A stretch of DNA of 64,000 nucleotides from Candidatus Bathyarchaeota archaeon (GTDB taxonomy: Archaea; Thermoproteota; Bathyarchaeia; Bathyarchaeales; Bathycorpusculaceae). This document shows positions 44,864-63,197 of the stretch, piece after piece. The stretch's first letter is position 1, and the number at the start of each line of letters is the position of its first letter. The notes under the pieces were generated by a model. It worked only from the letters and a program-made list of their open reading frames with translations. It was not told the origin of the DNA and searched no databases. Where the stretch lies: assembly GCA_963715865.1 (NCBI GenBank), contig OY970280.1:832001-896000 (forward strand), written 5' to 3'. The position numbers and the translations under genes are program-made.

Positions 44864-44877
44864 ATGGAGAATAGTTA

Positions 44878-46939: not shown

Positions 46940-47303
46940 AGCAAGCCAGCATCTCAAACGGCGAGAGCCTCAGCAGGATAGTCCAAAATGCTACGTTGAG
47001 AACGGTTTCGGGTTACAGGATTGTGCCGCCGCTTAGTACAGGATCTGAAGCAAGACTACTGATGAACGAATATCTCAGACAGGTGTATCGTGGGCAATGA
47101 CGATTTTTGTACAACTGCTTGACTTGACCACTGGATTCATCAACTTCTATGGAACACTCGGTTGTGTCCAGCCGAGAAGAGTGGGCGATCTGCAACTCGT
47201 AAACTCGATAGCCATTTGATGTCGAGTAACCGAGACAAATTATTTATTAAATCACGCTGCTTTTGCGGGGCAGGGGTGCGACGAGCCGAACTTGAACCCA
47301 AAC

Positions 47304-47436
47304 CAGACTGCGTGAAAACTCAAACCGCGTTCAAAAAGTTGCGCTCTACGTGTATATGCAGCAGCGTCCTGCTACCAACATTTTTCACACAAAAAAAGCA
47401 TTTTCCTGAAACTCAATCGAGTTTTTACACAGTCTC
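47304..47436 (+). mobile_element. MITE copy 1 (133 bp), IS1182-like ends
   Basis: TIRs CAGACTGCGTGAAAACTC / GAGACTGTGTAAAAACTC (15/18), AAAC duplicated at 47300-47303 and 47437-47440, inside TTGAACCC...GGTTCAA. Confidence 0.8.
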
Positions 47437-47680
47437 AAACAGGTTCAAGCCCCAGACCAAACGCAAGCAGTTAAACTCTTGTTTAGTCTGTAAACTTAGG
47501 GTTTGCTAAATCTAGTCTCAGCCTTCACCGATTAAGAGTAAGTTGTTCTGCCATAAATGACCTTCGGCAAATTTAGTGTCGTTTCTGAAATTGTTCACAT
47601 GGGGTAACCTGAACTCCTTTTGTGGTCTGAGAACACATATTACAATAAGCCTTGGCAAAAGTTTCTCGCAAGTTGAAACT

Positions 47681-48745
47681 TTATTCAAATAGGGGTGAGA
47701 GATCTTGAATTCCATAATGAGATTCAACTAACGCTGTCGCTTTTTTTATAAACACATTTTCAAGAATACTTCTGAATTTTTCCAGATCTTCTAAATTCAA
47801 TTTGCAAGATGTTTTTCCATGAATGAGGTTGTTTCGCTCACTCCTTAATTTACGTATTAATTGTTGGTCGTTGCTCGTCAGAGATACACCCAACCTCTCC
47901 AGTAGCTTTTGCCATTTTACCATTAAAGGCGGTTCATTCACTTTCTTTAATGTCTCAACCAAGGCAACCTCTTCTTGAAGTGGCAAAGCAAGATTTTGAA
48001 CTGCCAAGATACTTTTGTTGATATTTTCCTTTTTAGCAAGTTTGGATACTTTTTCATTAGTGCATAGGAACTCGAACGCAATCCAGAGTTGAAGTAAATT
48101 ATCAATTAAAGATTCTATTTCGAAAGACTGCATAAGCCAACTGAGTGTTTCATATAGCGATTGAACACTTTCATTATACTGACTCTTAATTTGTTCCAGC
48201 TTGTCAAGCGTTGGAATTAATGGATCGAAGAAATCTTGAGGACTATGATGGAAAACTAACTGATGTCCAGATTGCACATTCAGTAAGTTGAAGACTGCGC
48301 CTTTTGTTATTGAATCAATAGCCAACCCATAAGGTATTAAATGACACTTTGAGAAAGCTTTACTCATGTTATAATTCAACAGTACTTTTTTGCCATTATC
48401 GTTTATAGAGGGTAAAGTAATATCTGTTCTAAATTGTATCCAATCCACCGCTCGTTTAGTAACTGTCTCAGCCTTAGTTAATGCATCTAAATAATGTTCG
48501 GCAGTCACTTCGACCACGGCAAACGATGGATTGCCCTCCCAAGGTTGATTTCCAAGTGTTTTAGAACCTCTTATTTTATCAGTTAATATTTTGCTGATGT
48601 CATTAGTAAATAGAACTTCCTGTATCGTAAACTCAGATGGAAGAATAAGCCCACGTATCGGAAAAATAACTTTGAAGTTACGTTGAACTAAAAGGGGCTG
48701 ATTACCACCATGAAAAATGGGGGGCAAGTTTGTTGACTTAGCCAC
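47681..48745 (-). CDS. HEPN-domain protein (ApeA-like), putative defence RNase
   Basis: 'LLQLWIAFEFL' helix and RxxxxH motif 'RNNLIHG'. Confidence 0.72.
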   Translation of the reverse strand: MAKSTNLPPIFHGGNQPLLVQRNFKVIFPIRGLILPSEFTIQEVLFTNDISKILTDKIRGSKTLGNQPWEGNPSFAVVEVTAEHYLDALTKAETVTKRAVDWIQFRTDITLPSINDNGKKVLLNYNMSKAFSKCHLIPYGLAIDSITKGAVFNLLNVQSGHQLVFHHSPQDFFDPLIPTLDKLEQIKSQYNESVQSLYETLSWLMQSFEIESLIDNLLQLWIAFEFLCTNEKVSKLAKKENINKSILAVQNLALPLQEEVALVETLKKVNEPPLMVKWQKLLERLGVSLTSNDQQLIRKLRSERNNLIHGKTSCKLNLEDLEKFRSILENVFIKKATALVESHYGIQDLSPLFE

Positions 48746-48797
48746 AAAATAAATAGCATCTTGGGGAGATCTTGAAAAAGGCGATGCAAGTGAAGAC

Positions 48798-49340
48798 TCA
48801 GTTCTGTTTCTTTGCTACGCGGTCTTCAGGTTTAGGCGTAGGCAAACACAAAGCTGAAAAAACACTTTCCTCTGTATCTCCAGCCACCGCAACTTTATCT
48901 TTTGTCAACCCTTCGCTGTACTTCAACCTAAAACCTTTTGACAGGGCATAACTCGCAAGCCACATGTTATGATCTGCTGAACCCGTACGGATAAGCTCTT
49001 GAATGCCAAACGTTTGCTCAGTTGCACGGTAAAAATCAACTTGAAAAAGGCTGTTTTCAAAGGGATAGTTTAGTTTTATCACGCTTTTTCCCGCACAAAT
49101 AACCTTAGCCTTCTTTAAGGCTTGAACAATTTTGCCCCAGTTACATTCAGTTCCAATAGCAACAAAATCCACGTCACCAACCGTTGGCCTCTGCCGTCTG
49201 ATGGAGCCAACTACCTCAAGCTTATCGCATAATGGCTTGACTACACTTTCAACTTGTTTAGCAAGTAGCTGTGCGTTTACTAACTCAAGCTTTGTTAAAA
49301 CATTAGGCTCTTCTTCGCCGAACAATTTAGCCTGCTTCAA
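48798..49340 (-). CDS. Minimal PolX / DNA polymerase beta-like nucleotidyltransferase
   Basis: 'VGSIRRQRPTVGDVDFV', 'QVDFY', 'RTGSADHN', 'TEESVF...LPTPKPEDR'. Confidence 0.85.
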   Translation of the reverse strand: MKQAKLFGEEEPNVLTKLELVNAQLLAKQVESVVKPLCDKLEVVGSIRRQRPTVGDVDFVAIGTECNWGKIVQALKKAKVICAGKSVIKLNYPFENSLFQVDFYRATEQTFGIQELIRTGSADHNMWLASYALSKGFRLKYSEGLTKDKVAVAGDTEESVFSALCLPTPKPEDRVAKKQN

Positions 49341-49373
49341 TGTTCCATTCTTCCCCAGTTCTCAACGGCAAAT

Positions 49374-49487
49374 TTATGATTTCTCTTCAATCTCCAAACG
49401 GAGCTGACAGTTTTCTTTCCCAATACAGTAATCGCAACTAACATATTCTTTTTGGGTTTGGCAATCAATCACTATTTGAGCATACAT
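49374..49487 (-). CDS. Small Cys-rich ORF (37 aa)
   Basis: MYAQIVIDCQTQKEYVSCDYCIGKENCQLRLEIEEKS with GAGG upstream, upstream of PolX. Confidence 0.4.
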   Translation of the reverse strand: MYAQIVIDCQTQKEYVSCDYCIGKENCQLRLEIEEKS

Positions 49488-49660
49488 ACTTTCTCAACCT
49501 CGGGAAGCAACCCTACTTGCAGAACTAGCTTATAGGCAATATCGACTAAATGACAGCACTATTTTAGCTGACTAATGCCTTTTCATCATCAATTGTAAAC
49601 AAAAATATGAGTTAAAGGTCTCTGTTTCCAGTCAACGATAATAGGCAAATGCCTCTAAAA

Positions 49661-49706
49661 GGTGGCGAGCCCGCTGGGATTTGACCCCAAATGGGGTCGG
49701 AACCTA
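49661..49706 (-). repeat. tRNA-3'-like repeat plus hairpin, copy D
   Basis: GGTGGCGAGCCCGCTGGGATTT-GACCCC-AAAT-GGGGTC-GGAACCTATA. Confidence 0.85.
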
Positions 49707-49802
49707 TAACATGGAATCAACAACTTCCGAGAAGACACTGGAAAAACAATACAAGCCCTCCGGCAAACAATTTTTCAAAAAAAACAATTCTGTTTTTTTA
49801 TA

Positions 49803-49842
49803 GCGGGTCCGATGGGATGCGCTTAAACTATTAAGCGAATTC
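49803..49842 (-). repeat. tRNA-3'-like repeat plus hairpin, copy E
   Basis: GCGGGTCCGATGGGATG-CGCTTAA-ACTA-TTAAGCG-AATTC. Confidence 0.8.
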
Positions 49843-49932
49843 CACGAGTTATGAGCATAGAAGCAGTCGTTCCTTTGTTAACGAAGGTCAATCTCTCCGT
49901 ATCTCTTGCTTTCAATAGATAGTAAGAGCAAC

Positions 49933-50065
49933 ATGATGAAGCGTTACGATTTCTGTAAGTGAAGAGATAGCAAAAAAGTTAGAGGAAGAGCGAAAGAAAC
50001 GTCTATTGGATTCGATTTCCGAAACAATAAGGGTGATATCGAGCGAATACTATTCAAAAAGATGA
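49933..50065 (+). pseudogene. CopG/RHH-like small DNA-binding protein, frameshifted just after the start
   Basis: 'VTISVSEEIAKKLEEERKKRLLDSISETIRVI'; ATG 49933/49936 out of frame. Confidence 0.55.
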
Positions 50066-51277
50066 CATTCCCACCACTTCTCCGTTCGCCATTTTATAAA
50101 GAGTATAAAGTCTTCCAAAACTGTCTTCCTTATTTAGTTTTTTTGCTTCTTCCATTTTAAGACGCAAGTAGGATACAATATCTTTGTGTTCTGAATCGTC
50201 TCTCTTCTTCAGTTGGTAAAAAGCGTCCCTGAAGTCGCTCCCAAGTGTTTGCCACTTCGGGTTGCTCCACAGGGTGCTGGCATCATCGATAAGTTTCATT
50301 AAGTAATTCTTGGAATATTCATGTAATTGTAGAAGTATGTTGAAAACATTGGAAATAGAAGTAGTGTCGTAATTAGGGTCATCGTAGAATTTGCCTATTT
50401 CTTTTAGCCATTTTTGGTTGATAGCGGTTGTAACTTGTTCGCTAAAATGATTGATAATCATGGCGAGAAATTGTATATACTTCTCGGCATGAGACTCATG
50501 GAAAAGTTTCTCAGGTATAACACATTCTAAGGTTTTCTCAATTTCGTCTTTCACTTCGTTCCATTTGTAGTTGTCGCAGAGAGTACGGAGCTTATCCTGA
50601 AAATTGTCTAGCATTATTGCTTTTATGTCTGTGTTAGATGCTTCCTGTACTGCGTCTGATGCTTCTTTAAACGCATTAATTCGATTCGTATATGTAGTAT
50701 TGCGCTTAGTAATAAGCAGTTGTTGAGATTTCCACATATTATAGAGTTCGTTTGTTGTAAACCAAGCAAAAAACGATAATAACCCGATACCAAAAAGAAT
50801 TAGACTTATCTTACCAACAAGAATTTGGTTACCCATATTAGGTAACGCAGGCGTGACTGACAAGCTAAAGGCAATAGCGATTACTGTTACGCCCATGATT
50901 AGCATTGTAATCATGGTAATCCAAACCATTGGTCTCTTTTCTTTCTCTATGGGCGGTCTTCTAAAAAACTTAGAAAGTGAATTTGTGCCTTTTTGGATAG
51001 GCGGTGATATTGTGACATTTTCGCCTTTGGCGCCCGCACGATTGCGTCGTGCGTGAATCTGATAACCCAGCCAAAGAGCAGAGAGAAAGAAAATCAACAG
51101 AGCCAAAACTACGAAGAGTATAAAGTAATTTGCCAAGAAATCAACTCCGCGAAATAGAGGTTCGGGTATAAAACCCAACAAAACCAAGAGCCACAGGATT
51201 GAGCCGATGTTGCTTGTTGCTGAAAGAAGAAATTTCAACACACTCATTATCTTGTGGGTTTCCATGGTCATCAACAT
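50054..51277 (-). CDS. Membrane protein (4 predicted TMs) with large helical cytoplasmic domain
   Basis: 407-aa ORF, two TM hairpins then helical repeats; AT-rich. Confidence 0.8.
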   Translation of the reverse strand: MLMTMETHKIMSVLKFLLSATSNIGSILWLLVLLGFIPEPLFRGVDFLANYFILFVVLALLIFFLSALWLGYQIHARRNRAGAKGENVTISPPIQKGTNSLSKFFRRPPIEKEKRPMVWITMITMLIMGVTVIAIAFSLSVTPALPNMGNQILVGKISLILFGIGLLSFFAWFTTNELYNMWKSQQLLITKRNTTYTNRINAFKEASDAVQEASNTDIKAIMLDNFQDKLRTLCDNYKWNEVKDEIEKTLECVIPEKLFHESHAEKYIQFLAMIINHFSEQVTTAINQKWLKEIGKFYDDPNYDTTSISNVFNILLQLHEYSKNYLMKLIDDASTLWSNPKWQTLGSDFRDAFYQLKKRDDSEHKDIVSYLRLKMEEAKKLNKEDSFGRLYTLYKMANGEVVGMSSF

Positions 51278-51431
51278 GTGCCCATTTAAATTTAACTTTT
51301 ACCCCGATAGTTACACTGACATTCTGAAACTCTCAAACCCCGAAAAATTATCCGAACCCCTTTTCGGTTGTTTTAAATAGCCCTTCTTTAGATACGAAGA
51401 AGTGAAAAGCAAAACGTAGGAACTAATAGAC

Positions 51432-52040
51432 TTGATGCCTAACACAAGATGTGTTAAATTTGATGTCCCCAAGGATTGCAAACTAAGAAAATACTCGGAG
51501 CAATTAGTGTACATTTTTAAAAACAAAGACTACAAAGAAGATTTCAATAACTTTAGCGACCAACTATTCCATGATAGCTTTGCTTTCGTCAAAAAAGAGC
51601 TAAAAACAGACAAGCATCCTGTTATAGTAGTCGAGTTCGTTTACACTCAAACAGAATATGAAAGACTTGAAAAACAAGTAAACCAATTTGTGTACCAAAG
51701 AGAGAAGCCAAAAATTAAAACTCTTGGGTTTACGATAACAAGTAACTTCAGCAACAAGATTTACATTAATTTTGAGCCTCTTTTTGGGCTAATAGAAAAA
51801 AATTGTTCCGCCTTCGTGTTTAATCTAGTTTCAACGCTAATTCATGAAATTTTGCATTGCTTCTATCGTGACTTGAAAGATGAGCAAGCAACTTACGACC
51901 TTCACTGTAAAATGCTTGAAGTCTTTTTAGGCATAACTTTACCCGATGAAATGAAAGAGACAAAAGCATCCGATTACTATACATCAAAGATGCAGAAGTT
52001 AAATAGCTTAGGTGACGATTTTTCAAATAGACAAACCTAA
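51432..52040 (+). CDS. HExxH metallopeptidase-like protein (SprT-like)
   Basis: 'NKIYINF...STLIHEILHCF'. Confidence 0.65.
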   Translation: MMPNTRCVKFDVPKDCKLRKYSEQLVYIFKNKDYKEDFNNFSDQLFHDSFAFVKKELKTDKHPVIVVEFVYTQTEYERLEKQVNQFVYQREKPKIKTLGFTITSNFSNKIYINFEPLFGLIEKNCSAFVFNLVSTLIHEILHCFYRDLKDEQATYDLHCKMLEVFLGITLPDEMKETKASDYYTSKMQKLNSLGDDFSNRQT

Positions 52041-52102
52041 AAAGCGTTGCCCCAAGTCACTCATGTAAACGAAGACGCACAGCAAAAAGAAAAAAGGAAG
52101 AT

Positions 52103-53101
52103 TTAAGATGATTCTCTTACAGCAAAGAGAGTTTCCATCTTTTTCTGGTAATCTCTAAAACCGAATCCTGGATAAATCAAAAGAGTTTTTGGTTCAGCGA
52201 CTACGCTTTTTAGATACCCCTCATAGATTTTCTTGTTGTTTTTATCTTCCAAGAAATCCATTATTTGATTTAGCTGTTTTTCTCCAGCTTCACCAAGCTT
52301 CTTTTCTATGTTATCTATCTTCTCATCAAAGTTCTCAGAATCTTCCGAGTAGCGAAGCGGATTAGTTAGCGAGATTTTAATGCTTCTGAATAAGTCTTCA
52401 AGGTCCCAAGGTTGAAATATGCTGTTTTCTGCTTCTTTGAGTTTTTTTAGATGTCGCATAGCTTCGTAATAAACTGCTTGATCCGTTGGTTCACCTTGCT
52501 CTGGAAATTCTTTCTTCAAGCTGAAACGTGCGACAAGGGCAACCTGATTCAATCTTGCTGTTTCCACTTCTTTCTGTTCTTGTCGGCAAACAAGATTATA
52601 GGCTTCCAAAAGTAGCTTTCTGTATCTTAATATGATTTCATGTTCCTTAGGACCGCGCTCTGAAAGAACAAATTTTTCCCATATGTTCATAATTCTTTCT
52701 TCGACTTCAATAAAAGGAGAACCCTTTGAAAAATCGTCATCAATTAGCTTTCTAAGAATTGGTGAATCTGTAACAATCAGCCAACGAAAGTAGTAAGAAA
52801 GCCCTAATTTATTTTTGTCCTTTTCATGCAGCTGTTTGGAGAATTGTTCATTCAAGAATTCAGAAATATCACTGAGGAACATAGACTCTAAGCCTATTGG
52901 CTTTCTCTCAAATTTACGGGTTTCAATATTTCTTTCAATTAAACCTAGACTTTGAAGATGTTTTAGGTAATCGGAAAGGAGCGTAGGTTGATGAGAAAAA
53001 CCAGACAATTCCCCTATCTCTTTATTCCTTTGTGGCCCTTTTTCCAGAGCCTTTAATATTCTTATTTCGCCAGGAGCCAGTTTCCTCTCCTTACTTTTCA
53101 T
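52103..53101 (-). CDS. Winged-HTH protein with long helical C-terminus
   Basis: 'RILKALEKGPQRNKEIGELSG...LLSDYLKHLQSLGLIER'. Confidence 0.8.
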   Translation of the reverse strand: MKSKERKLAPGEIRILKALEKGPQRNKEIGELSGFSHQPTLLSDYLKHLQSLGLIERNIETRKFERKPIGLESMFLSDISEFLNEQFSKQLHEKDKNKLGLSYYFRWLIVTDSPILRKLIDDDFSKGSPFIEVEERIMNIWEKFVLSERGPKEHEIILRYRKLLLEAYNLVCRQEQKEVETARLNQVALVARFSLKKEFPEQGEPTDQAVYYEAMRHLKKLKEAENSIFQPWDLEDLFRSIKISLTNPLRYSEDSENFDEKIDNIEKKLGEAGEKQLNQIMDFLEDKNNKKIYEGYLKSVVAEPKTLLIYPGFGFRDYQKKMETLFAVRESS

Positions 53102-53237
53102 TAACTACACCATAACTATAGAAACTACAGTATAAGTATATTAGTTTTTCTTGGATTTTAACTATGATTAATGAGAAGTAACAAATGCCAAACATTAGAA
53201 AATTAATGAAACTTTATTACGGCAAAGAACCACGCGA

Positions 53238-53768
53238 GTGGTATATACTTCACAGGTTTTTCGGAGGGATTCTTTGACTCAATCGTTTAATGTCATGATT
53301 TGCGCTTCTCAAGAAACGCATCCAGACTTCATTAAATGTGCTGAAGGTGTTTGCAAAAAGAGACGATATAATATGATTTTCTCTCCATACAAATCACAAG
53401 AAAAACTTTTAGAAAAATTCGAAAACAGTTTACCTGACGCCAATATAATTTTAATGGACGTAACACCTCAAGAGCTTAAAGATTCAGAAAATAAAACACA
53501 CTACATTACAAATCAAGGAGTACTGATCGAATTTGGGTATATCATTGCCTTAAGAGACTATTACAAATTTCTTTACATTTTTTGTGATGCAACTAAGCTA
53601 GAAAAAACACACCCATATGTTCGAAACGAAACCATCAACAAATATTCAAAAGACAATCTGAGAGAAAAAATTCTCGGAAAAGTTGACGAACGCCTAAAAA
53701 GAATACCTTGCGAGTACATTACAGATAGAAAACGAATTAAAAACCTAGAAGAAAAAATTCTTAGATAA
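53238..53768 (+). CDS. Nucleoside-deoxyribosyltransferase/TIR-like fold protein
   Basis: 'IILMDVT...NQGVLIEFGYIIAL' matches the D-x-T...N.(G/N)V..E.GY..AL signature. Confidence 0.65.
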   Translation: MVYTSQVFRRDSLTQSFNVMICASQETHPDFIKCAEGVCKKRRYNMIFSPYKSQEKLLEKFENSLPDANIILMDVTPQELKDSENKTHYITNQGVLIEFGYIIALRDYYKFLYIFCDATKLEKTHPYVRNETINKYSKDNLREKILGKVDERLKRIPCEYITDRKRIKNLEEKILR

Positions 53769-53771
53769 AGG

Positions 53772-53999
53772 AACGAGTTAGACGGCAAAGCGTTAACCTA
53801 CGAATGGACAGACATTCCCTCTATTGGTGCTCATGTTTTTGAACGCTTAGATTGCCCAACCAAAAAATCCTCTTGCTTCTAGAGAGAATATCCAAATTGA
53901 TCACGAGAGAGGGAGAAACTGTTCTTGACCCCTTCTGTGGTTGTGGAACTACAATTATGGCCTTTAAGGGATTGAAGAAACGGTGGATTGGTAAAGACT
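53772..53999 (+). pseudogene. Relic of a beta-class N6A/N4C DNA methyltransferase
   Basis: Two frames: 'WTDIPSIGAHVFERLDCPTKK' and 'LLERISKLITREGETVLDPFCGCGTT...KRWIG'. Confidence 0.8.
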
Positions 54000-54107
54000 A
54001 ACATAATTGGCAATTTCATTTATTCATTCCCGTCTGACCTCTGAGAAAGCACTGATGATCACTATAGCGGCGGGGTCAAATTACAGCATCCAACAAACGT
54101 TGCAAAG

Positions 54108-54181
54108 CGGGTCATACAAAGGATTCGCTTAATGTTATTAGCGGGTCCGATGGGATTTGAACCGTGTTGGGTTCAAGCCGC
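54108..54181 (-). repeat. tRNA-3'-like repeats, copy F preceded by a degenerate copy
   Basis: GGATTCGCTTAATGTTATTAGCG overlapping GCGGGTCCGATGGGAT-TTGAACC-GTGTTG-GGTTCAA-GCCGC. Confidence 0.8.
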
Positions 54182-54231
54182 ATTTATCGGACAACGCTTC
54201 TCCCGAACCAAACCAACATTCTATCTTGAAT

Positions 54232-54276
54232 GCGGACCCAGTGGGATTTGAACCCAAAAGGGTTCAAAACCTTATT
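54232..54276 (-). repeat. tRNA-3'-like repeat plus hairpin, copy G
   Basis: GCGGACCCAGTGGGAT-TTGAACCC-AAAA-GGGTTCAA-AACCTTATT. Confidence 0.85.
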
Positions 54277-54373
54277 CAAATAAGAAGGGATAATCTTCTC
54301 GTCTCAAATAGGAGCGGGCGGAAAAGAAGACTGACAACTCTGCTAATAAAATGTTAAGAATTATCCTCCAAAA

Positions 54374-54410
54374 GCGGGCCCGCTGGGACTCGAACCCCGC
54401 GGGGCGAATA
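54374..54410 (-). repeat. tRNA-3'-like repeat, copy H
   Basis: GCGGGCCCGCTGGGACTCGAACCCC-GC-GGGGCGAAT. Confidence 0.8.
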
Positions 54411-54482
54411 TGTACTATCCACCTTTTTCCATGCACAAAAATTTAAACAGAGAGCCGCTTTTCGTGTATTAGAGGAAACTAA

Positions 54483-54722
54483 GTGTCTGGAAAATGGCTT
54501 AATTCTCACACCTATGGCTTAATGGCTCTTCTGTCTGGTATAACAGGCATCTTGTCTATAGCGGTTTCGCGAGCCTATTTGCCTGCTGGTTCATTGTTTG
54601 CGTTGCCTCTTTTAGTTTTAGGTTTATTTCTAGTTGTGGTTTCGGTTGTTTTCTTGTTCTTTTTCTTTACGATGCAGTGGCGTTGGACACATGGTCAACC
54701 ACAGCCACGTCCATTGACCTAA
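54483..54722 (+). CDS. Small two-TM membrane protein
   Basis: 79 aa, two hydrophobic helices, GAGGA SD. Confidence 0.6.
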   Translation: MSGKWLNSHTYGLMALLSGITGILSIAVSRAYLPAGSLFALPLLVLGLFLVVVSVVFLFFFFTMQWRWTHGQPQPRPLT

Positions 54723-54759
54723 AAGCTAAATCGTTACGTTGTTACTAATCAGCCTTTTG

Positions 54760-55164: not shown

Positions 55165-55230
55165 CTTTGAAGAATAGTGTTTGCAAGCGGGATTGCACGG
55201 AAATAGATGGGGTCTGAACTGCTTTTTTCT

Positions 55231-55488
55231 TTACGTACGACGTTTTCGTCGCCGAATTAAAATCATCACTCCGTACATCACTCCTCCAGTGAATAGCGAA
55301 ATAAAGACTCCTTGAAATAGATTATACGCCAGACTCTCACCATCAAAAAAATTAGAGATTAAACCAAACGATAAGAAGAAACCTACCATAATTATAATAA
55401 TTCCCGCGTTTGGAAGCTCTTGAATCTTGAAAAGTCGCTTTAACCTGTCTTCAAATGAGGACAAAGTAGATGCCACTACCTTCAACAC
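55231..55488 (-). CDS. Small two-TM membrane protein
   Basis: Two hydrophobic helices and basic tail RRRKRRT; start uncertain. Confidence 0.55.
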   Translation of the reverse strand: MLKVVASTLSSFEDRLKRLFKIQELPNAGIIIIMVGFFLSFGLISNFFDGESLAYNLFQGVFISLFTGGVMYGVMILIRRRKRRT

Positions 55489-55648
55489 ATTGTGAGAGCA
55501 GCAAGTATTTTACATTTTTCCCTGTCTTTGGGCAGAGCGAGTTTCTTGAATACCGATGGCGGAATACGCCAAGATGTACGTGGTAAGTTATCCCACGAAA
55601 AGCTTTCAAAAGGTTCCAGTCAAACGATAATGAGTAAATGTCTATGCA

Positions 55649-55692
55649 GGTGGCGAACCCGCTGGGATTCGTTTAATTATTTAAGCGAATCC
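55649..55692 (-). repeat. tRNA-3'-like repeat plus hairpin, copy I
   Basis: GGTGGCGAACCCGCTG-GGATTCGTTTAA-TTAT-TTAAGCGAATCC; first 20 nt match copy D at 19/20. Confidence 0.85.
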
Positions 55693-55715
55693 TTTGTCTT
55701 AACCACAAACGAATA

Positions 55716-55746
55716 GTGGATCGCTGGGATTTGAACCCTAGGACAA
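55716..55746 (-). repeat. tRNA-3'-like repeat, copy J
   Basis: GTGGATCGCTGGGATTTGAACCCTAGGAC; similarity reaches the variable-loop GTCC. Confidence 0.75.
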
Positions 55747-55895
55747 GTGGAGATATCTCCCGCGCCATCTTCCCTCTTTTTCTTTTGGCTAAAGAAAACT
55801 CGGTTTTTCATAACCATTTCATTTTTGATTCTCGGATAACGTTCGTGCTGGAGTCGCATTTTTTATTATTCATACTTGCAGCTACGCCAGTCTCG

Positions 55896-56108
55896 TTAGG
55901 GGTTTACTCTTCCAACTCTTCTCAACAGTACGTTGGCTATCAAAGCCACAGCCAAATCGGCTAAAATCCAAACTATGAACGTAATAACTCCTAAGAGAGC
56001 CAAAAAAGTGAACAGCAGCAGAAGAGCTATTGCAATTATGCCGATTCTTTTCTTTCTTCGGCGTAATTTATCAGGGGTCAAATTAGTTGCGGCAGGCATA
56101 TCCGTCAC
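55896..56108 (-). CDS. Small two-TM membrane protein
   Basis: Basic N-terminus and two TMs. Confidence 0.7.
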   Translation of the reverse strand: MTDMPAATNLTPDKLRRRKKRIGIIAIALLLLFTFLALLGVITFIVWILADLAVALIANVLLRRVGRVNP

Positions 56109-56168
56109 TTTTAACTCAATATCAAAGGTCTTAAAATATTAATCTTCAAGATATTCTAGATAATTGCT

Positions 56169-56740
56169 GTGCAATTACAGAAACTCAGAGAGGTTAGCTG
56201 GTCTAACCCTGATGTCCCGCTCAATGAAGTCAGATTACTTTTTAGTTTCATCAAAGGTTGGGACCGCTTTTTTCAAGGGGATGCTGACCACTTTAAAGAA
56301 ATCTATACAGAAGTTTTTCCTGCAATCGATAAGGTAAGAAAAGAGAAAATTGAAGAAATAATACTCACAGACGAAATGACTGTAGAAATTCGTAGAACCT
56401 TTGATAAAATAGCTAATTGCACAGGATTTGATAGATAGGATCCACAGATGCCTCCAAGATTCTTCATACTCTTGTCCCAAACTTCTTCATAATGTGGGAT
56501 GATCGTATAAAGGAGATGACCGTACAAGGTGGAAACAACGGAGCGGTTTATGCTATCAAGTTTTTGCCAAAAATGCAATTGGAGCTGAGAGAAGCAATTG
56601 AAACTTGCAAGAAAGATAATGGAACAACACGCGAAGAAGCGATTAGATACATCTGCGAGAAGTGCCACGGAAGAACTCTAGCCAAGATAGTTGACGAATA
56701 TAACTATATGAAATATACTAAAGGATATTCTACGCTCTGA
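56169..56740 (+). pseudogene. One hypothetical gene split by a -1 frameshift at ~56435
   Basis: Joined reading '...CTGFDR/IGSTDASKILHTLVPNFFIMWDDRI...TLAKIVDEYNY' is a continuous protein-like motif series. Confidence 0.7.
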
Positions 56741-56761
56741 GTGCAGCAAGAGTTGGTTGGA

Positions 56762-57400
56762 TTACATTTTAATTACTTGAAACTTCTCAGGAAGCTTCTC
56801 TCTTAATGCTTTAACAAAACTGTCTTCCTTTGCATAGGCAGCGTATTTCAATTCACCGCTAATTGAGCTGGGGAGAGGAGCTATAATCATACAGTCCAAA
56901 GGCGAGTTTCTGAAGATCGTTTTCTTGATAAGATCTGGAGAAGCAGAGAGTTCAGTGTAATGACATAAAGCCGCCAAAACAGTATCTATAAAAATGACAA
57001 CTATTTTCTTGAAGCCATTGAAGTCAGAATAGTCTTTTGCTGCTGCATGTTCAATTGCTCTGTCCACATCTCCAGTAAAATCTTCTTCGCCTCTTGTCCT
57101 AATTTGTTGAGTTACCTCTTCATTCTCAGCATATTGTATTGAAGTTATCTCGTACACTATTTTGCAATCGGGGATTTGAAAATCAGGTGTTTTCTTTATT
57201 GATGTTGGTATTTTGGTTGATTTGCCAAACTTGCCCATTATTCGCTTTGCTTCGTTTTCGCGAGTACCATCCATTACTTCACCATCAATATATTTTTGGT
57301 ACTTCTTTTTTCTCTCAGAATTAGCGGGTGTTGGGTTGTAGTAAATATCTTCCAAATCGGGCATATCTTTAGGAAGGAAGTTTTTTACCATATCCAGCAC
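56762..57400 (-). CDS. PD-(D/E)xK-like nuclease candidate
   Basis: 'KTPDFQIPDCKIVYEITSI'. Confidence 0.55.
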   Translation of the reverse strand: MLDMVKNFLPKDMPDLEDIYYNPTPANSERKKKYQKYIDGEVMDGTRENEAKRIMGKFGKSTKIPTSIKKTPDFQIPDCKIVYEITSIQYAENEEVTQQIRTRGEEDFTGDVDRAIEHAAAKDYSDFNGFKKIVVIFIDTVLAALCHYTELSASPDLIKKTIFRNSPLDCMIIAPLPSSISGELKYAAYAKEDSFVKALREKLPEKFQVIKM

Positions 57401-57734
57401 TTACATGCAGTTCCTTTATATGCCTTATCTGCTTGAGCAATTTTTAACATTTTAGCTTTCATTACCAGTTAATGCCAGACTTATCCAGACCTTGTGATGC
57501 TTGCGGTAAGATGATTGGCGGAGGCTTTAAGCACTGCCCAAGATTTCAAATCTACTTCTGCTATACCTGTTGGATTGAGCTAATGTATATTCAAAAGAAG
57601 CTTCCGCTTGAATGCCCTATGTGCGGTGGAAAGCTTATTATTCCTTAAACTACGAGCGCGCTTAAGCAACCAGACTCTCAAGCGTCCATACGAAAACTAC
57701 AAAAGACGTAAATCGCCGATTGGAGTAGTGCTCA

Positions 57735-58184
57735 TTGATATGGATGAAAGGCTTAAAATTAATTCCATTCGTATTAATCTCTTTAGTTTTCACCTTCCTC
57801 GCTCTTGGTGTAGCCTACGGGGAAACAACCTCTACTACAGTTCAAAATGTGCCTTCCGTGAATGATGTAACTACTTCAACAACAACGACTTCCACAACAA
57901 CAACTACATCAACAGTGACTACATTCACTGACTCAAATGGGATAGTACATCATGCCTACAATATATCGGTGTCAGAATTAACCCCCACTATGTTAACATC
58001 GGCTACCGTAACTACATCGAGTGGATTTATAGTACCTGCGCGTGATGCAGACTCAGATCCGTCCCAAGGATACGTTTTCGATTACTTGAATTTTGAATAT
58101 GCAGGTATCATGCTAACAGGGATTATTTCTGCATTACTACTGTTAAATGTACCTCATCCAGTTAAAACCTCAAAAGTAAAGTGA
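57735..58184 (+). CDS. Small surface protein with Thr-rich linker and C-terminal TM
   Basis: Signal peptide, TTSTTTTSTTTTTS tract, C-terminal hydrophobic helix. Confidence 0.78.
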   Translation: MIWMKGLKLIPFVLISLVFTFLALGVAYGETTSTTVQNVPSVNDVTTSTTTTSTTTTTSTVTTFTDSNGIVHHAYNISVSELTPTMLTSATVTTSSGFIVPARDADSDPSQGYVFDYLNFEYAGIMLTGIISALLLLNVPHPVKTSKVK

Positions 58185-58194
58185 ATCGCGCGCA

Positions 58195-58800
58195 TGCTTG
58201 TTCCGAAATTAGTTGGCGAAGTATCTAATGCTTCTCGTTTTGCCAATTTTGTTTGTGTTAACGGCGGCTTGAGCCGTAATCAGCATGATTAGAATGCAAA
58301 GTTGAGAATGAAACGTTAAATTGGTCAAACCTCGCAGATTGTGTTCTTTTAAGCCTGCTAGGTTCTTGAGTCTGCTGAAAACCCGCTCTACAGCCACCCG
58401 TTTCTTGTATGCTGATTTGAATTTTCGTGGTCCGTGACTCCTAAACTTCCGATCAACTCTCAATATGCCTTTAACGCCTTTACTCTGATTCCTCGGATAA
58501 GGAATAACCGGCAACGCTCCACACTCCAATGCTGTTTCCCTCAGATTTGCTGCGCTGTACTGTGAGTCAGCCAAGAGCTTCCTTGGTTTTACGTATTCTG
58601 ATGCTTTCGCAAACAGGCTTATGGAATGTTTCTTCTCGTTCTCGTTTGCCGAAACCACAATCATCGCAATCGGCAGCTCACTTTTGACGTCAACAGCCAA
58701 ATGAAGCCTGTAACCTAAGTCTTTGGATTTGACTGCTCTTCCAATCCTTGATTCAGGATCGCTATAGCCTGTGCGGTCAAGGTTTCGCCTTTTATCTCGG
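58195..58800 (-). mobile_element. 5'-truncated DDE transposase (IS4/IS5-like) with possible right end
   Basis: 'DPESRIG...LGYRLHLAVDV', 'LADSQY', 'YKKRVAVERVFSRLK'; frame hits TGA at ~58810; GCTTGTTCCGAAA just beyond the stop. Confidence 0.85.
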
Positions 58801-58975
58801 CTTTCTCAAAATCACGTAAAAGGTACATTTCAGGGTCTTGCCTCTCCATGATGTTAAGGCGCGGGTTATGTGTCTCTTGTTGGATGATTAGGCGATGAGT
58901 GGTTAACCAGCCTACACCATTTGCCAGCTTGAAGGATAAGATTGTTTTTTCGCCTGGGAAGCCGTCAAATTTCAT
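58715..58975 (-). pseudogene. N-terminal fragment of a PH-like small protein truncated by the IS fragment
   Basis: 'GVGWLTTHRLII' pattern; the 3' part is transposase DNA read out of frame. Confidence 0.5.
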
Positions 58976-59428
58976 AATGCTCTTTTAGTGGCTTACCACT
59001 ATTTTGATTTTTCCCATTTTTATCGACTATCTCTTAACAATCCGTAGGAAAGCATTGCTTTCAAGCGTTTAGCGAAAAGTATTTTGGTTCAATTCCAGGG
59101 CGTAACAGTAAGGGCAGAAAGTGTATAGTCAATCAGGACTAACCGCCAAAGTCGGCTTACTATACTAAGAAAAAAGCCATAGCGCCAAAACATCAAGCAA
59201 TACCTCTTTCTTTTTTAATTTATCTCGAAGGCAAAGTGTTTGTTCGTTTCTTGTCGTAATCACCATCTTTCCGCAAGTTTTATATTTGTCGTCACCATTC
59301 AATTTTCAATATTTTCACTATTTCCAAGGTTTTATAAGTAAGTTGGAGACAGAGAGGGCTCTATTGGGCGAGAGCATTTACGCTTCTTGCTCGATAAAAA
59401 ATAAAATTATAGGAAAGGAAAAACACAA

Positions 59429-62080
59429 ATGAAATTTGCTAAAAACAAAACTATTGCTATTGCAATCGCTATATTCTTAATGCTTTCAATGACAGCTTCA
59501 ATGATGCTAGTTCCGGCTAATGCTCACACACCGGCATGGCAGGTTCCTACATATGCATTCATCAATGTCGCACCTAACCCAATAGGGGTAGGGCAACAAG
59601 TCTCTGTAACATTTTGGCTTGATAAAGTCCCGATCGGTGCAGAAGGGCAATGGGGATCAAGATGGCATAACATGAAAGTAACTGCTAAGGATCCTGACGG
59701 AACCAACACAACAATAGGCACGTTTAACTCTGACCCCAACGGCGGTGCAACAACATATTTCACTCCGACAAAAACAGGCACCTACACTTTCTACTTTGAG
59801 TTCCCAGGACAGATAGCACAAAATGAAAACCCATACCCATACGTAGGATTCATCGGACTTGGACTTGACTACGTCAACGACACTTTCTTACCAAGCAGCG
59901 CCTCCACAACACTTACAGTACAGTCACAAGCAATCTCCTACGCTTATGGAGCATCCCCCCTTCCAACTGCATACTGGACACGTCCAATAAACTCCATGAA
60001 CAGAGAATGGGCACCCATCACTGGCAACTGGCTAGGCCTTGGAGCAACATCCTTTGGCGTAACCGGCATGTACACTGACACTGGAGGAGTAACCTCTGCA
60101 GGAGGAAACTTTGACCCATACTCAACAGCACCAAATAGCGCCCACGTCATGTGGACGCAACCTATAGCGTTCGGCGGTCAGATTGGAGGAGAATTCGGAA
60201 CCGGCGACGCAGCTATCTATGCCACTGGAACAGCTTACGAATGCAAATTCGGCGCCGTAATACTAAACGGAATTCTCTATTATACCGAGTATCCGGGCGC
60301 AGGAACCAACCCATCAGGTCTGAAGGCTGTTGACTTAAGAACTGGCGCAACAGTTTGGGACAAGAACATCACCGACCCGCTAAGATGCGGCATGGTAACA
60401 AACTTCCAAACCGGCGACCAATACGGAGGACACGCATACCTGTTCACTACAAATTCCTATGAAGGATTCGCTGAGCCTTACTCTGCACTCACCGCACCCA
60501 CTACTTGGGGAATGTACGATGCAATGACCGGAGACTGGATACTAAACATTGCAGGTGTACAAGCCTCTGATGATCTTGTAGAAGGTCCAAACGGAGAAAT
60601 ACTATGCTACTACGTTAACAGCTCATCTACAACCGGTGCAGCCTCCCTTAGCATGTGGAATTCATCTTTATGCATCGCGCAAGGCTCCCAGTCAAATCTT
60701 TTCTATCTTACTTACAGCGCTAAAGAAATTTGGCGACCCGTGCAAGGAGCAACTATCCCATGGAGTGCAGGAATCCAATGGAGCGTACCCATCGCGACCA
60801 GTATCAATGGTGTTTCAATGGCTCCATACACTTTAGGCGTAGCAGGGATCGACAACAACACCATACTTATGACCGCGACTACAGGAGGAATATTCGCCGG
60901 ACCACCAGGCGGAGCATCATTAGGCTTCAGATATGATGCAGGTTACAGTACAACAGGTCAACTGCTTTGGGGTCCAGTGAACCGCACGTTAACACCATTC
61001 ACTACACAAGTTCTGTCAGTTGGTGACGGAAAATACGCTGAATACACTCAACAAATGCTGACGTGGACAATGTACGATCTCAAAACTGGAAACAAACTAT
61101 TCACAACGCCACAATCGAATAGTTCCTGGAGCTACTATGACTTCACTGGTCCAAGCACTTTTGGATACGGAAACTTCTACACTTGGGGCTTAGGTGGAAC
61201 AGTATACTGCTACGATGACACTACCGGTCAACTTAAATGGAGTTGGTCCGCTGGAACAGCAGGTCTAGATACCCCATACGGAACCTGGCCTTTAGGTACC
61301 TGGTCAAGTCACCATATCCTTGCAGACGGCAAGCTCTATGTTAGAGCCGGACATGACTACACTCCACCAGTCTTCAAAGGTGCAAAGATTTACTGTATCA
61401 ACGCTACAACTGGAAAAGAAATTTGGGACTCACTTAGCTTCGACATCGTAAGTTCGCCTGCACTCGCAGATGGATACATGGTCTGGGATAACGGCTATGA
61501 CAACCAAATATACTCTTACGGCCAGGGACCAAGCGCATTGACTGTTTCAGCGCCTAGCGTTGGCGTGACAACCTCTACGCCTATAACTATAAGCGGCACC
61601 GTAACCGACATCTCTGCCGGAACAAAACAAGACGCGGTAGCATCGAACTTCCCGAACGGTCTTCCATGCGTTTCTGACGCAAGCATGAGCAGGTGGATGG
61701 AATACGTTTACCAGCAGCAACCATGCCCAACTAATGTGACTGGTGTTCCAGTTACCCTAAGTGTTCTTGACTCAAACGGCAACTACAGACAAATCGGCAA
61801 CACCACAAGTAATGCAGACGGCTTGTTCGCTTATACTTGGACACCTGATATTCCAGGCAGTTACACTGTCATCGCTAACTTTGCAGGTTCAGAATCGTAC
61901 TATCCATCATCCGCTGACGCAGCCTTCTATGCCAGTTCTCCAGCGCCAACAGCATCTCCATATCCAGTGACCGTTTTGCCTCCGACTGAAATGTACATTG
62001 GCGCAGCAGCAGCCGCAATAATAGTTGCAATAGCCATAGTCGGCGTTATAATAGTAATGATGCTTAGGAAGCGACCATAA
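59429..62080 (+). CDS. Large secreted PQQ-like beta-propeller surface protein with C-terminal Ig domain and TM anchor
   Basis: Signal peptide, 'NPIGVGQ', W-containing propeller blades ('LKAVDLRTGATVW', 'CINATTGKEIW'), 'WTPDIPGSYTVIANFAGSESYYPS', TM plus RKRP; TATA TTTTATAA at ~59331. Confidence 0.92.
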   Translation: MKFAKNKTIAIAIAIFLMLSMTASMMLVPANAHTPAWQVPTYAFINVAPNPIGVGQQVSVTFWLDKVPIGAEGQWGSRWHNMKVTAKDPDGTNTTIGTFNSDPNGGATTYFTPTKTGTYTFYFEFPGQIAQNENPYPYVGFIGLGLDYVNDTFLPSSASTTLTVQSQAISYAYGASPLPTAYWTRPINSMNREWAPITGNWLGLGATSFGVTGMYTDTGGVTSAGGNFDPYSTAPNSAHVMWTQPIAFGGQIGGEFGTGDAAIYATGTAYECKFGAVILNGILYYTEYPGAGTNPSGLKAVDLRTGATVWDKNITDPLRCGMVTNFQTGDQYGGHAYLFTTNSYEGFAEPYSALTAPTTWGMYDAMTGDWILNIAGVQASDDLVEGPNGEILCYYVNSSSTTGAASLSMWNSSLCIAQGSQSNLFYLTYSAKEIWRPVQGATIPWSAGIQWSVPIATSINGVSMAPYTLGVAGIDNNTILMTATTGGIFAGPPGGASLGFRYDAGYSTTGQLLWGPVNRTLTPFTTQVLSVGDGKYAEYTQQMLTWTMYDLKTGNKLFTTPQSNSSWSYYDFTGPSTFGYGNFYTWGLGGTVYCYDDTTGQLKWSWSAGTAGLDTPYGTWPLGTWSSHHILADGKLYVRAGHDYTPPVFKGAKIYCINATTGKEIWDSLSFDIVSSPALADGYMVWDNGYDNQIYSYGQGPSALTVSAPSVGVTTSTPITISGTVTDISAGTKQDAVASNFPNGLPCVSDASMSRWMEYVYQQQPCPTNVTGVPVTLSVLDSNGNYRQIGNTTSNADGLFAYTWTPDIPGSYTVIANFAGSESYYPSSADAAFYASSPAPTASPYPVTVLPPTEMYIGAAAAAIIVAIAIVGVIIVMMLRKRP

Positions 62081-62312
62081 AAATGCCAAACAAAATCCAC
62101 TTTCCCCTTTTTTAGTCTCTAGAAAGCAATGGAGAAGAAATGGGCTGAGAAGGCTCTGGTTAAATTAACGATTGACCAATAGCAAATCGAAATAGCATTT
62201 GCATTCTTTTCTCCTAAAGAGTGTTCCAGAGCCTCAGCAAACCCTAAATGCTCAAAGATGTCGCCAATCAGTCATTGTCTTTTTTTAGGAAACATGGTTT
62301 AGTCTTTCCAAG

Positions 62313-62346
62313 TGGCGCCGGGAGAGAGGGATGAAGATTTGAATCC
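62313..62346 (-). repeat. tRNA-3'-like repeat, copy K (Ser-like end)
   Basis: TGGCGCCGGGAGAGGG...TTTGAATCC; reverse complement ends CCCTCTCCCGGCGCCA. Confidence 0.7.
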
Positions 62347-62411
62347 TTGAAGCGTCAAAGGAAAATTCGAATTTAGGTAAATAATTTTTATGTAAGGTTC
62401 CACTAGACTTT

Positions 62412-62437
62412 GGGTTCGGAGCCCAGCGGCCCCGCCA
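62412..62437 (+). repeat. tRNA-3'-like repeat, copy L (opposite orientation)
   Basis: GGGTTCGGAGCCCAGCGGCCCCGCCA. Confidence 0.75.
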
Positions 62438-62501
62438 TTAAGAAAGCGATTTGGCTGACTCTAAAAAACTGTAAGATAAAGATTGCGGCTTGAACCCGTT
62501 T

Positions 62502-62631
62502 GAGAGTGTGTGAAAACTCAAATTTAGTTTTAGAAATTGCAGCTTATATCTAAAAACACGTCCTGGCACCCTACCGAATCGACGTAAAAGTAGCAATTTT
62601 CTGAAATTGAAACTAGTTTTCACACAGTCTC
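62502..62631 (-). mobile_element. MITE copy 2 (130 bp)
   Basis: TIRs GAGAGTGTGTGAAAACT / GAGACTGTGTGAAAACT (16/17), GTTT duplicated at 62498-62501 and 62632-62635, inside CTTGAACCC...GGGTTCAAG. Confidence 0.82.
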
Positions 62632-63197
62632 GTTTGGGTTCAAGTTCGGCTCGGCCCATATTAGACTCAACCCCGAAGCGGTCTGAGTCCCAATTTGTTA
62701 CGCCACTAGAAGTATAGGATTATAAGTACGTACTCGTTTCTTTGAAGGCGGATCATTTTAAGTAGCAAAAGCCACAGGCACAGATATTTAGTTTTTTCAT
62801 GTCTGTCGCCTGCAAATTGAAGACTCTAACTTGCTTATAAAATGAGCCGAAAGCTTATTCCATCTGCAAAAATGATGAATCCTTATACTGCATAGTAAGT
62901 TGCGAAAGTTATAAGGAAGTAGAGCGCGTGTGGTGCATCATATTATCAGAGAGAATATCGCAATTATTTCTAGGGCTATTCCGATGATGTGTAACTGATC
63001 AAACTTGTTGCTTCTCTTTACTGTTTCCATTTTTTCATTTCCCCGTTTTGCTTCTCAGCTGGAATGCCGAGACAAAGCGTACTTTCATCAATGTTGTTTG
63101 GAAAGGTTGTGATTCCTTAGCAAGTTTCGATTCACTTGGAACCTTTCGAGCTCGCTCCCTTAAACTGAAGGTAAAGGGCTGCTGGATTTGAAGAATT

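Follow-up and report, generated by a model that had tools for sequence, protein, structure and literature searches.

Two gene-less elements at the centre of tRNA-end-like palindromes

The window analysed here is a 64,000-nt stretch of the genome of a peat-soil archaeon (Bathyarchaeia). It carries two gene-less elements, one of 133 bp (copy 1, 47304-47436, + strand) and one of 130 bp (copy 2, 62502-62631, + strand), each with TIRs of 17-18 bp. The TIRs of copy 1 are CAGACTGCGTGAAAACTC and GAGTTTTTACACAGTCTC; read off the sequence, they pair at 15 of 18 positions, and those of copy 2 at 16 of 17. With the ends excluded, the interiors are diverged yet alignable (61 of 99 alignment columns the same, z = 6.6 against shuffles). 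The ORFs that overlap the copies (47162-47509 on the + strand and 62438-62659 on the - strand) cross the repeats.

Each element is inserted at the centre of a palindrome with arms CTTGAACCC and (A/G)GGTTCAAG, with a direct repeat of 4 bp immediately on either side (AAAC at copy 1, GTTT at copy 2). The arms are complementary at 8/9 positions around copy 1 and at 9/9 around copy 2. In hairpin 1 the outer arm (47282-47299) is a tRNA-Val(TAC)-like 3′-end fragment (T-arm plus acceptor) on the minus strand, the last nine bases of which (47291-47299) form the left palindrome arm, CTTGAACCC. There follow the left AAAC duplication, which is the former hairpin loop (47300-47303), copy 1, the right AAAC (47437-47440) and the right arm AGGTTCAAG (47441-47449, + strand), of a class, GGGTTCAAGCC, that is also found at 54169-54181 and at genome position 197509. 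Hairpin 2 comprises the left arm CTTGAACCC (62489-62497, + strand; the GGGTTCAAGCCGC class on the other strand), the left GTTT (62498-62501), copy 2, the right GTTT (62632-62635) and a right arm on the + strand (62636-62658) in which GGGTTCAAG (62636-62644) is succeeded by acceptor-like sequence. This right arm is again tRNA-Val(TAC) 3′-end-like, positions 62637-62658 matching that tRNA at 21/22 bases. The conserved flank exceeds the 9-bp arm, as 47282-47303 is the reverse complement of 62632-62653 at 22/22 bases. Both sites retain both arms and have the loop duplicated; neither shows partial loss of the hairpin without duplication, in the style of IS1272. The element coordinates, TIRs, 4-bp duplications and individual letters given in the initial annotation were all reproduced.

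The likeness to tRNA is confined to 3′-end fragments of 15-27 nt, which are the only parts to match real tRNAs. ARAGORN found no tRNA in the window and Rfam no family at gathering score, and a tRNA with an intron or a split tRNA was rejected on these grounds. Just outside the window, a weak integrase match adjoins a tRNA-Gly.

A scan of the whole genome for the TIR (17-mer end, up to 3 mismatches) returned 11 matches, four of which are the ends of copies 1 and 2 and one the end of a transposase relic. Matches at genome positions 1600462 and 1640764 were considered as single-end relics and dismissed as chance, since similarity does not extend past the end motif. The genome has only two MITE copies, and tabulation of their flanks places both inside tRNA-end-like hairpins, where the initial annotation had expected such copies to lie.

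Unfilled hairpins

Three unfilled hairpins are found in the window. Those at 35674-35693 and 54248-54267 both read TTGAACCC-AAAA-GGGTTCAA, the left arm of the former being tRNA-Pro 3′-end-like. The third (54157-54176) reads TTGAACC-GTGTTG-GGTTCAA; its left arm is the 3′ end of tRNA-Arg(TCT) at 23/23 bases and its right arm is GGGTTCAAGCCGC. The initial annotation had presented all three as empty copies with the same architecture as the restored arm-AAAC-arm sites. The architecture does hold, as does the match of one flank to 54169-54181, which is GGGTTCAAGCCGC, but the loops are AAAA, GTGTT(G) and AAAA in order of position. A loop with a single AAAC, which the same annotation had predicted for empty sites, does exist outside the window at genome positions 197483-197519, where a tRNA-like arm is followed by one AAAC and then by GGGTTCAAGCCGC. 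This paralogous empty site is identical to the reconstructed copy 2 junction at 22/22 bases.

When 1.4 kb around each copy was compared with 120 genomes of the genus, no orthologous site spanning either insertion was found; what the queries matched were further dispersed repeats and MITE copies, together with a repeated coding domain. In four public metagenome runs, where no more than 0.10 of the sampled words occur and the contigs from relatives over 44500-63500 are fragmentary, no contig joint skipping either element was seen within these small shares. One 255-nt metagenome contig carries a near copy of copy 1. Mobility at both sites is therefore deduced from paralogues and relatives.

Full-length relatives and their transposase

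Three full-length elements (1628-1633 bp) whose ends are those of the MITEs were found in three related genomes of the same Bathyarchaeia genus (G047, G043 and G060), which supplies the autonomous transposase with the same TIR that the initial annotation had proposed to look for. Elements of the IS1182 family are about 1.3-2 kb long (ISfinder), and these three fall within that range. Each has a single ORF, of 444-486 aa, between its TIRs, two of the three being broken or shortened. The 486-aa ORF of the G047 element is intact. The product scores 391.2 bits over residues 8-472 against NCBIfam NF033551 ‘IS1182 family transposase’ (curated cut-off 270 bits), the scored protein being that of this relative rather than of the source genome. 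Searches against Pfam returned DUF772, DDE_Tnp_1_6 and DDE_Tnp_1 for the same protein. The guess that the window elements are non-autonomous members of the IS1182 family is borne out by these same-ended 1.63-kb relatives, as the transposase that they encode passes NF033551. Judged by their ends, both window elements can be assigned to the MITEs of the IS1182 family. However, the sequence shared with the full-length elements seen is limited to the terminal 17-18 bases, so the true parent of the MITEs may be a different IS1182 lineage.

The transposase is present in 55 of the 120 genus genomes, many with intact ORFs and some with several identically scoring copies. The source genome is without an intact IS1182-type transposase, and its sole remnant is a 57-residue C-terminal relic (74% identity) that retains the right end (2353899-2354203). 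Both copies are therefore probably stranded, immobile fossils, unless an incoming element brings a transposase.

Target duplication and hairpin preference across the genus

Flanks were scored for 57 distinct elements of the genus (among them 53 distinct copies of 120-145 bp, collected from 80 loci, and three full-length copies) against a control of 19,995 random sites. A perfect 4-bp direct repeat flanks 33/57 elements, compared with 0.56% in the control, and a 3/4 match flanks a further 7/57. The 33 perfect duplications use 15 different 4-mers, and this variation from copy to copy indicates that the repeat is a real target duplication. The other 24/57 elements, including all three full-length copies, have no perfect duplication. 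Several elements have flanking 4-mers in inverted rather than direct orientation (e.g. AAAT/ATTT, TGTT/AACA), which a simple staggered-cut model leaves unexplained.

The arms were complementary at ≥7/10 positions in 21/57 elements (control 0.53%) and at ≥5/10 in 42/57, with a mean complementarity of 5.65 against 2.59 at random control sites. The arms of the remaining 15/57 pair at fewer than 5/10, and about seven of these elements adjoin a different GC-rich half-site. Moreover, a T-arm-like arm (GGGTTCAA at ≥7/8 positions) adjoins the duplication in 33/57 elements (control 0.23%). The tRNA likeness of the arms differs among the genus copies (Val-, Gly-, Pro- or Ala-like), which argues that the arms are the target and not part of the element.

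Palindromes with a 4-nt loop number 580 in the source genome, which is the chance level (243 per Mb, compared with 242 in shuffled sequence), and only 5 of them are T-arm-like. Given the strong excess of T-arm-like arms among the targets, the palindromes hit are not a random sample, and the proposal that any palindrome will serve as a target was set aside. The excess may partly stem from selection against insertions in genes, or from hitch-hiking on mobile cassettes, rather than from a preference of the enzyme. The initial annotation had conjectured that the element may use the repeat family as a safe harbour or may inactivate recombination sites. Targeting of hairpins, however, characterises this family of transposases in general, and no special tie to the tRNA-like repeat is needed. 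The initial annotation had given both 4-bp repeats and palindromic targets as traits of the IS1182 family. A preference for palindromic targets agrees with a statement in Furi et al. 2016 (PMC4923244), citing Siguier et al. 2015, while the 4-bp repeat as a family trait was not found in print and was seen in the genus data and in one Pseudomonas plasmid element.

Origin of the two insertions

We consider it very probable that IS1182-type MITEs inserted into the loops of hairpins in two separate events and are now stranded. A transposase would recognise the 17-18-bp TIRs, (C/G)AG(A/G)CTGTGT(G/A)AAAACT, and would favour DNA able to form a hairpin or cruciform. Within the genus the favoured targets are short palindromes that pair a copied tRNA 3′ end (T-arm plus acceptor) in one arm with GGGTTCAA-type sequence in the other; such palindromes sit between gene cassettes in islands rich in mobile elements. 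The ends of the element would be joined to the target with a 4-bp stagger across the loop, and repair of the gaps would leave the loop duplicated on either side. This insertion chemistry we infer, whereas the end result and the transposase family are directly observed. In the window, two MITE subfamilies would have entered two paralogous copies of one hairpin with a tRNA-Val-like arm and an AAAC loop.

The alternative that there was only one insertion, and that the filled hairpin was later copied and inverted (e.g. as the ends of a 15-kb duplicated or inverted block), is suggested by the tRNA-Val-like flanks, which are identical at 22/22 bases with AAAC included, and by the two sites being inverted and 15.2 kb apart. 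We consider it very unlikely. Despite the identical flanks, the two elements are just 63% alike over their whole length. Each is far closer to copies in other species, copy 2 being 94% identical to one in G055 and copy 1 80% identical to copies elsewhere (the best in G123), and in a tree copy 1 falls in MITE subfamily 1 and copy 2 in subfamily 2. Read on the + strand, both copies go from end A to end B, but the hairpins around them are inverted relative to each other, so the direction of the element relative to its hairpin differs between the sites. The call of orientation holds in 109 of 121 cross-subfamily comparisons; when copy 1 is compared with the 11 members of subfamily 2, the same orientation is better in 7, worse in 3 and tied in 1, so for copy 1 the argument is only moderately strong. 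The shared 4-mer is itself to be expected of paralogous hairpins with equal loops, and an empty paralogue with an AAAC loop exists. Taken on their sequences, the two copies in the window inserted separately, each belonging to a different MITE subfamily.

Two further readings dispense with transposition. A site-specific recombination module, in which a tyrosine or serine recombinase swapped palindromic sites and the 4 bp are the crossover overlap, or in which the arms are the outer part of a longer element, would formally give the same picture if both partners carried arm-4 bp-arm. The hairpins do resemble the core sites of recombinases, they are located in tRNA-anchored islands, and there is the weak integrase match by the tRNA-Gly just outside the window. 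Yet the 4-mer varies freely, with 15 kinds, and the variation of the arms among copies marks them as target. A circle of 130 bp is moreover a poor substrate for a recombinase. What the full-length elements bounded by these ends encode is an IS1182 DDE transposase, not a recombinase, and bacterial copies with these ends sit in unrelated palindromes, all of which makes the module highly improbable. A structured non-coding RNA gene in a tRNA-like scaffold, with the inverted ends as an RNA stem, is harder still to credit. Both copies, folded as DNA, do better than shuffles (z = -3.6 for copy 1, which forms a long hairpin, and z = -5.6 for copy 2), and one flank is tRNA 3′-end-like. Against this stand the absence from the window of any Rfam family at gathering score and of any tRNA, and the same ends bounding a transposase gene. 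Conservation is highest in the repeats at and just inside the ends, with a variable centre, as is typical of MITEs.

A more elaborate version of hairpin-loop insertion, which we regard as unlikely, treats the T-arm-like palindromes as live sites of recombination at the junctions of mobile cassettes, this IS1182 lineage as having evolved homing to them at the level of sequence, and the inverted 4-mers as reflecting a second, IS1272-like mode that replaces the loop. Were homing to occur, the transposon would have a landing site that does no harm and could travel between genomes on cassettes. Each insertion would also split and disable a cassette junction, and the transposon would in this way shape which cassettes still move.

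Comparison with known insertion sequences

IS1272 and TnSha1, which belong to the IS1182 family in staphylococci, insert into hairpins (Wan et al. 2017, PMC5678879; Furi et al. 2016, PMC4923244), and the latter paper includes independent repeated insertions into one hairpin in both orientations. According to both papers, part of the hairpin is deleted or replaced on their insertion and no duplication results, whereas here the arms remain and 33/57 elements show a duplicated 4-nt loop. The minority with inverted flanking 4-mers might, by analogy, reflect such a replacing mode. The bacterial insertion sequences IS1397, ISKpn1 and ISPpu9/10, which target REP/BIME repeats, have transposases of other families (IS3 and IS110). 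Such elements (Tobes and Pareja 2006, PMC1525189) are similar to the MITEs in homing to a host family of palindromic repeats in intergenic DNA. They differ in having bacterial hosts and in targeting REPs, not tRNA-end-like palindromes at cassette junctions.

The window MITEs reveal no new mechanism; as the IS1182 family is already known to aim at hairpins, they are a clean but ordinary case. They do document an archaeal branch of IS1182 and its MITEs with the hairpin-centred insertion known from bacteria. In the literature covered, no printed description of this archaeal family was found, although supplementary files may list such MITEs; by word look-up, IS1182 is absent from the main text of two MITE papers (PMC11602168, PMC10969869). 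The elements also mark the centre and loop of the tRNA-end-like palindromes in Bathyarchaeia islands, a family otherwise hard to account for, and supply dated, independent ‘hits’ of potential use in following the history of cassettes.

Over its full length, the transposase of the archaeal relatives shares 42-44% identity with copies on bacterial plasmids, the nearest of which PGAP labels ‘IS1182-like element ISPa7 / ISPa22 family’. An ISPa7-labelled element carried by a Pseudomonas plasmid has the same type of end, of the CAGACCGTGTAAAAAC form, and is flanked by a 4-bp duplication, GGCC. Apart from the archaeal host and the restriction of similarity between the 130-bp MITE and the full-length elements to their ends, a difference from the bacterial members lies in the targets, which here are A/T-looped tRNA 3′-end-like palindromes and in bacteria are GC-rich and REP-like with GGCC-type centres. 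Finally, in a scan of GTDB species genomes, 110/119 loci yielded 111 elements that share these ends and measure 119-149 bp; 75/111 are flanked by a perfect 4-bp repeat. Among the matches listed, the titles were mostly of bacterial MAGs with a few isolates. The element ends are nearly the same in the archaeon and at these loci, though the transposases are only about 43% identical.

Two MITEs in tRNA-like hairpins

The window spans positions 832001-896000 of a single-contig archaeal genome (2.35 Mb, 42.8% G+C) from the class Bathyarchaeia. Two MITEs in the window lie within hairpins resembling tRNA ends. Copy 1 (47304-47436) is bounded by AAAC repeats at 47300-47303 and 47437-47440, outside which are the two halves, or arms, of the target palindrome, CTTGAACCC (47291-47299) and AGGTTCAAG (47441-47449). 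Copy 2 (62502-62631) is bounded by GTTT repeats at 62498-62501 and 62632-62635, with outer arms CTTGAACCC (62489-62497) and GGGTTCAAG (62636-62644). Re-reading of the sequence confirmed the letters that the initial annotation had assigned to the elements, 4-bp repeats and arms at both sites. Both termini of each copy carry an imperfect inverted repeat of 17-18 bp. Each copy gives a long single-strand hairpin fold (z = -3.6 for copy 1 and -5.6 for copy 2) that beats 200 of 200 shuffles. A genome-wide scan for the end motif, allowing up to 3 mismatches, returned 11 matches and no third full copy. Copies 1 and 2 account for four of these matches with their ends, and a fifth belongs to the end of a transposase relic elsewhere in the genome. 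Two others were inspected, and there the similarity stops at the motif without extension.

Empty sites

The element-free form of both sites was rebuilt by script and searched against the genome. The rebuilt copy 2 form matched genome positions 197497-197518 across the junction at 22/22 bases, where a minus-strand tRNA-like 3′ end is followed by a single AAAC and then GGGTTCAAGCCGC. The expected empty form of this hairpin class, with a single AAAC loop, is therefore present in the genome, as a paralogue and not an orthologue of the occupied site. Three sites within the window had also been proposed as empty copies of the same architecture; they do share the build, but their loops read AAAA, GTGTT(G) and AAAA instead of AAAC. 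No orthologous empty allele was found in 120 genomes of the genus or in fragmentary contigs from four metagenome runs. Contigs from three metagenome runs contain a sequence like that at 54374-54386 and, 16 other letters further on, a MITE resembling copy 2. The same arrangement, joining the equivalents of window positions 54386 and 62503, occurs in two relatives of the same genus (G025 and G059, loci L036 and L016). The copy 2 subfamily therefore occupies another tRNA-like hairpin in other organisms.

Probable independent origin of the two copies

On their tRNA-Val-like side the two sites agree over 22 of 22 bases, in inverted orientation; similarity between the elements is only 63%. A tree of 53 copies places them in separate subfamilies. 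Identity to copy 2 reaches 94% in the relative G055 and 93% in the relative G025; for copy 1, the best identity to any copy from another species is 80%. Orientation is unambiguous within each subfamily (55/55 pairs in each), and the chosen orientation scores better in 109 of the 121 comparisons made across subfamilies; with copy 1 taken by itself, 7 of 11 cross-subfamily comparisons were won, 3 lost and 1 tied. These comparisons put both elements in the same direction on the + strand, in hairpins that are inverted relative to each other. The simplest reading of these sequence relationships is two independent insertions into paralogous hairpins.

An IS1182-type partner in related genomes

When 101 related genomes were searched at the DNA level, the element turned up in many species of the genus, often with several copies in one genome and in clusters on shared contigs. 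Reading of the flanks identified three longer elements (1628-1633 bp) that share the MITE ends, in the relatives G047, G043 and G060. A single intact ORF of 486 aa is present in the G047 element; in the other two the ORF is interrupted or shortened. The G047 protein scores 391.2 bits against the NCBIfam model NF033551 ‘IS1182 family transposase’ (cut-off 270), contains the Pfam domains DUF772, DDE_Tnp_1_6 and DDE_Tnp_1, and shares 42-44% identity, along its whole length, with IS1182-annotated copies on bacterial plasmids. A protein search found the transposase in 55 of 120 genomes of the genus. Because many of the ORFs are intact (486-499 aa) and some genomes hold several copies with identical scores, the family is probably active in these relatives. 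In the window’s own genome the transposase is reduced to a C-terminal relic of 57 residues and one end. The termini alone are common to the 130-bp MITE and the full-length elements seen. A 290-bp element in another relative (L015 1230-1519, G006:C27) matches the 1.63-kb IS at both ends beyond the inverted repeat, which identifies it, as judged from sequence, as an internal-deletion derivative of that IS, distinct from the 130-bp family.

Target duplications and palindromes across the genus

The comparison set was 57 distinct elements, drawn from 80 loci of the genus and made up of 53 elements of 120-145 bp, three full-length ones and one of 290 bp; 19,995 random sites in the same loci served as the control. 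A perfect 4-bp direct repeat flanks 33/57 elements, against 0.56% of control sites, and a further 7/57 match at three of the four positions. Arms complementary at 7 or more of 10 positions were found in 21/57 elements (control 0.53%) and at 5 or more in 42/57, with a mean arm score of 5.65 vs 2.59 in the control. On inspection, several of the 15 low-arm elements are palindromes shifted by one base and missed by the ungapped score. The 33 perfect repeats comprise 15 different 4-mers, mostly A/T-rich. In 33/57 elements an arm agrees with GGGTTCAA in at least 7 of its 8 positions (control 0.23%). Palindromes that have a 4-nt loop and are of similar quality number 580 in the window’s own genome, a chance level; only 5 of them resemble a tRNA T-arm, so the target set is not what random sampling of palindromes would give. 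Comparison with the genome’s own tRNA genes showed that the arms look like 3′ ends of tRNA-Val, -Gly, -Pro or -Ala, in some cases with the encoded CCA. The arms vary between copies and so belong to the target, not to the element. The tRNA-like palindromes themselves may be att scars, recombination sites or a repeat family.

A perfect duplication is absent from all three full-length copies (L027 622-2254, L025 3956-5583 and L022 3245-4873). The flanking 4-mers of a few elements, including L033 2992-3121 and one in L038, are inverted complements (AAAT/ATTT, TGTT/AACA), and the palindrome reaches the element edge. This pattern may have arisen through recombination between copies or through an IS1272-like, loop-replacing mode of insertion. 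A different, GC-rich half-site, representing a second class of target, adjoins about seven elements and the transposase relic. Outside the window, the right end of the relic (genome 2353899-2354220) adjoins AACA (TGTT when read on the opposite strand) and then a GC-rich sequence of the CATGCGCGC type. MITE ends in six loci from other species (L038, L031, L181, L194, L195 and L197) have the same AACA/TGTT and CATGCGCGC-type neighbour; the half-site lies on one side only in some loci and on both sides, as an inverted repeat, in L038.

The same ends in bacteria

Species genomes of GTDB were scanned for both ends set apart by the length of a MITE, which gave at least 119 loci (L053-L171). The 80 titles among the matches listed include five Bathyarchaeia, the others being mostly bacterial MAGs and a few isolates, from Nitrospirales, Gammaproteobacteria, Acidobacteriota, Verrucomicrobiota and other groups. 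These elements, of 119-149 bp, have nearly the same 17-bp ends as the MITEs, and 4-bp duplications. At least 111 were readable with their flanks; among the matches listed, the 4-bp repeat is perfect in 75/111, mostly GGCC, GGTC or GACC, and arms reach 7 or more of 10 in 29/111 (all sources pooled). Many lie inside obvious palindromes, often of a recurring CCGCTTTG-GGCC-CAAAGCGG type. A Pseudomonas plasmid element annotated ‘IS1182-like element ISPa7 family’ carries ends of this type next to a GGCC repeat. Loop duplication is thus a trait of the clade and no invention of the archaeal lineage.

Proposed mode of insertion

The window elements are IS1182-family MITEs showing the known targeting of that family. 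Furi et al. (PMC4923244) describe TnSha1 and IS1272 insertions as always lying in hairpins, and refer to Siguier et al. 2015 on palindromic targets of other IS1182 members. Here the host lineage is new and the class of palindrome distinctive. The data establish which family the transposase belongs to, that the ends are shared, that a 4-bp duplication of variable sequence is present and that the elements sit at the palindrome centre. In the proposed route, the transposase would bind the element ends and capture the target as an extruded hairpin or cruciform, or single-stranded at a fork; strand transfers would be made 4 bp apart across the loop, and repair would then double the loop on both sides of the element. 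Such a route is among the pathways drawn for IS1272 in Fig. 13 of Wan et al. (PMC5678879). In that paper’s account of IS1272, by contrast, the hairpin is replaced and the duplication is absent.

Neighbouring repeats and tRNA-like fragments

Two further short dispersed repeats flank copy 1 (46760-46890 and 47471-47575). Both are found again, with 75-94% identity, on numerous contigs from many genomes of the genus, one of them also in the window’s own genome (877977-878038), and are probably further MITE-like families. Between the two MITEs lie tRNA 3′-end-like fragments of 15-27 nt, detected by tRNA comparison and all in minus-strand sense (49663-49689, 49803-49818, 54141-54163, 54232-54256, 54374-54397 and 55722-55738), one of which matches tRNA-Arg(TCT) at 23/23 positions. 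The right half of the window may represent a stack of elements integrated at tRNA-Gly(GCC). This gene, on the minus strand, and an adjoining frame of 435 aa with a weak, below cut-off match to Phage_integrase (21.7 bits) lie 0.6-1.5 kb past the window end (genome 896560-897546).
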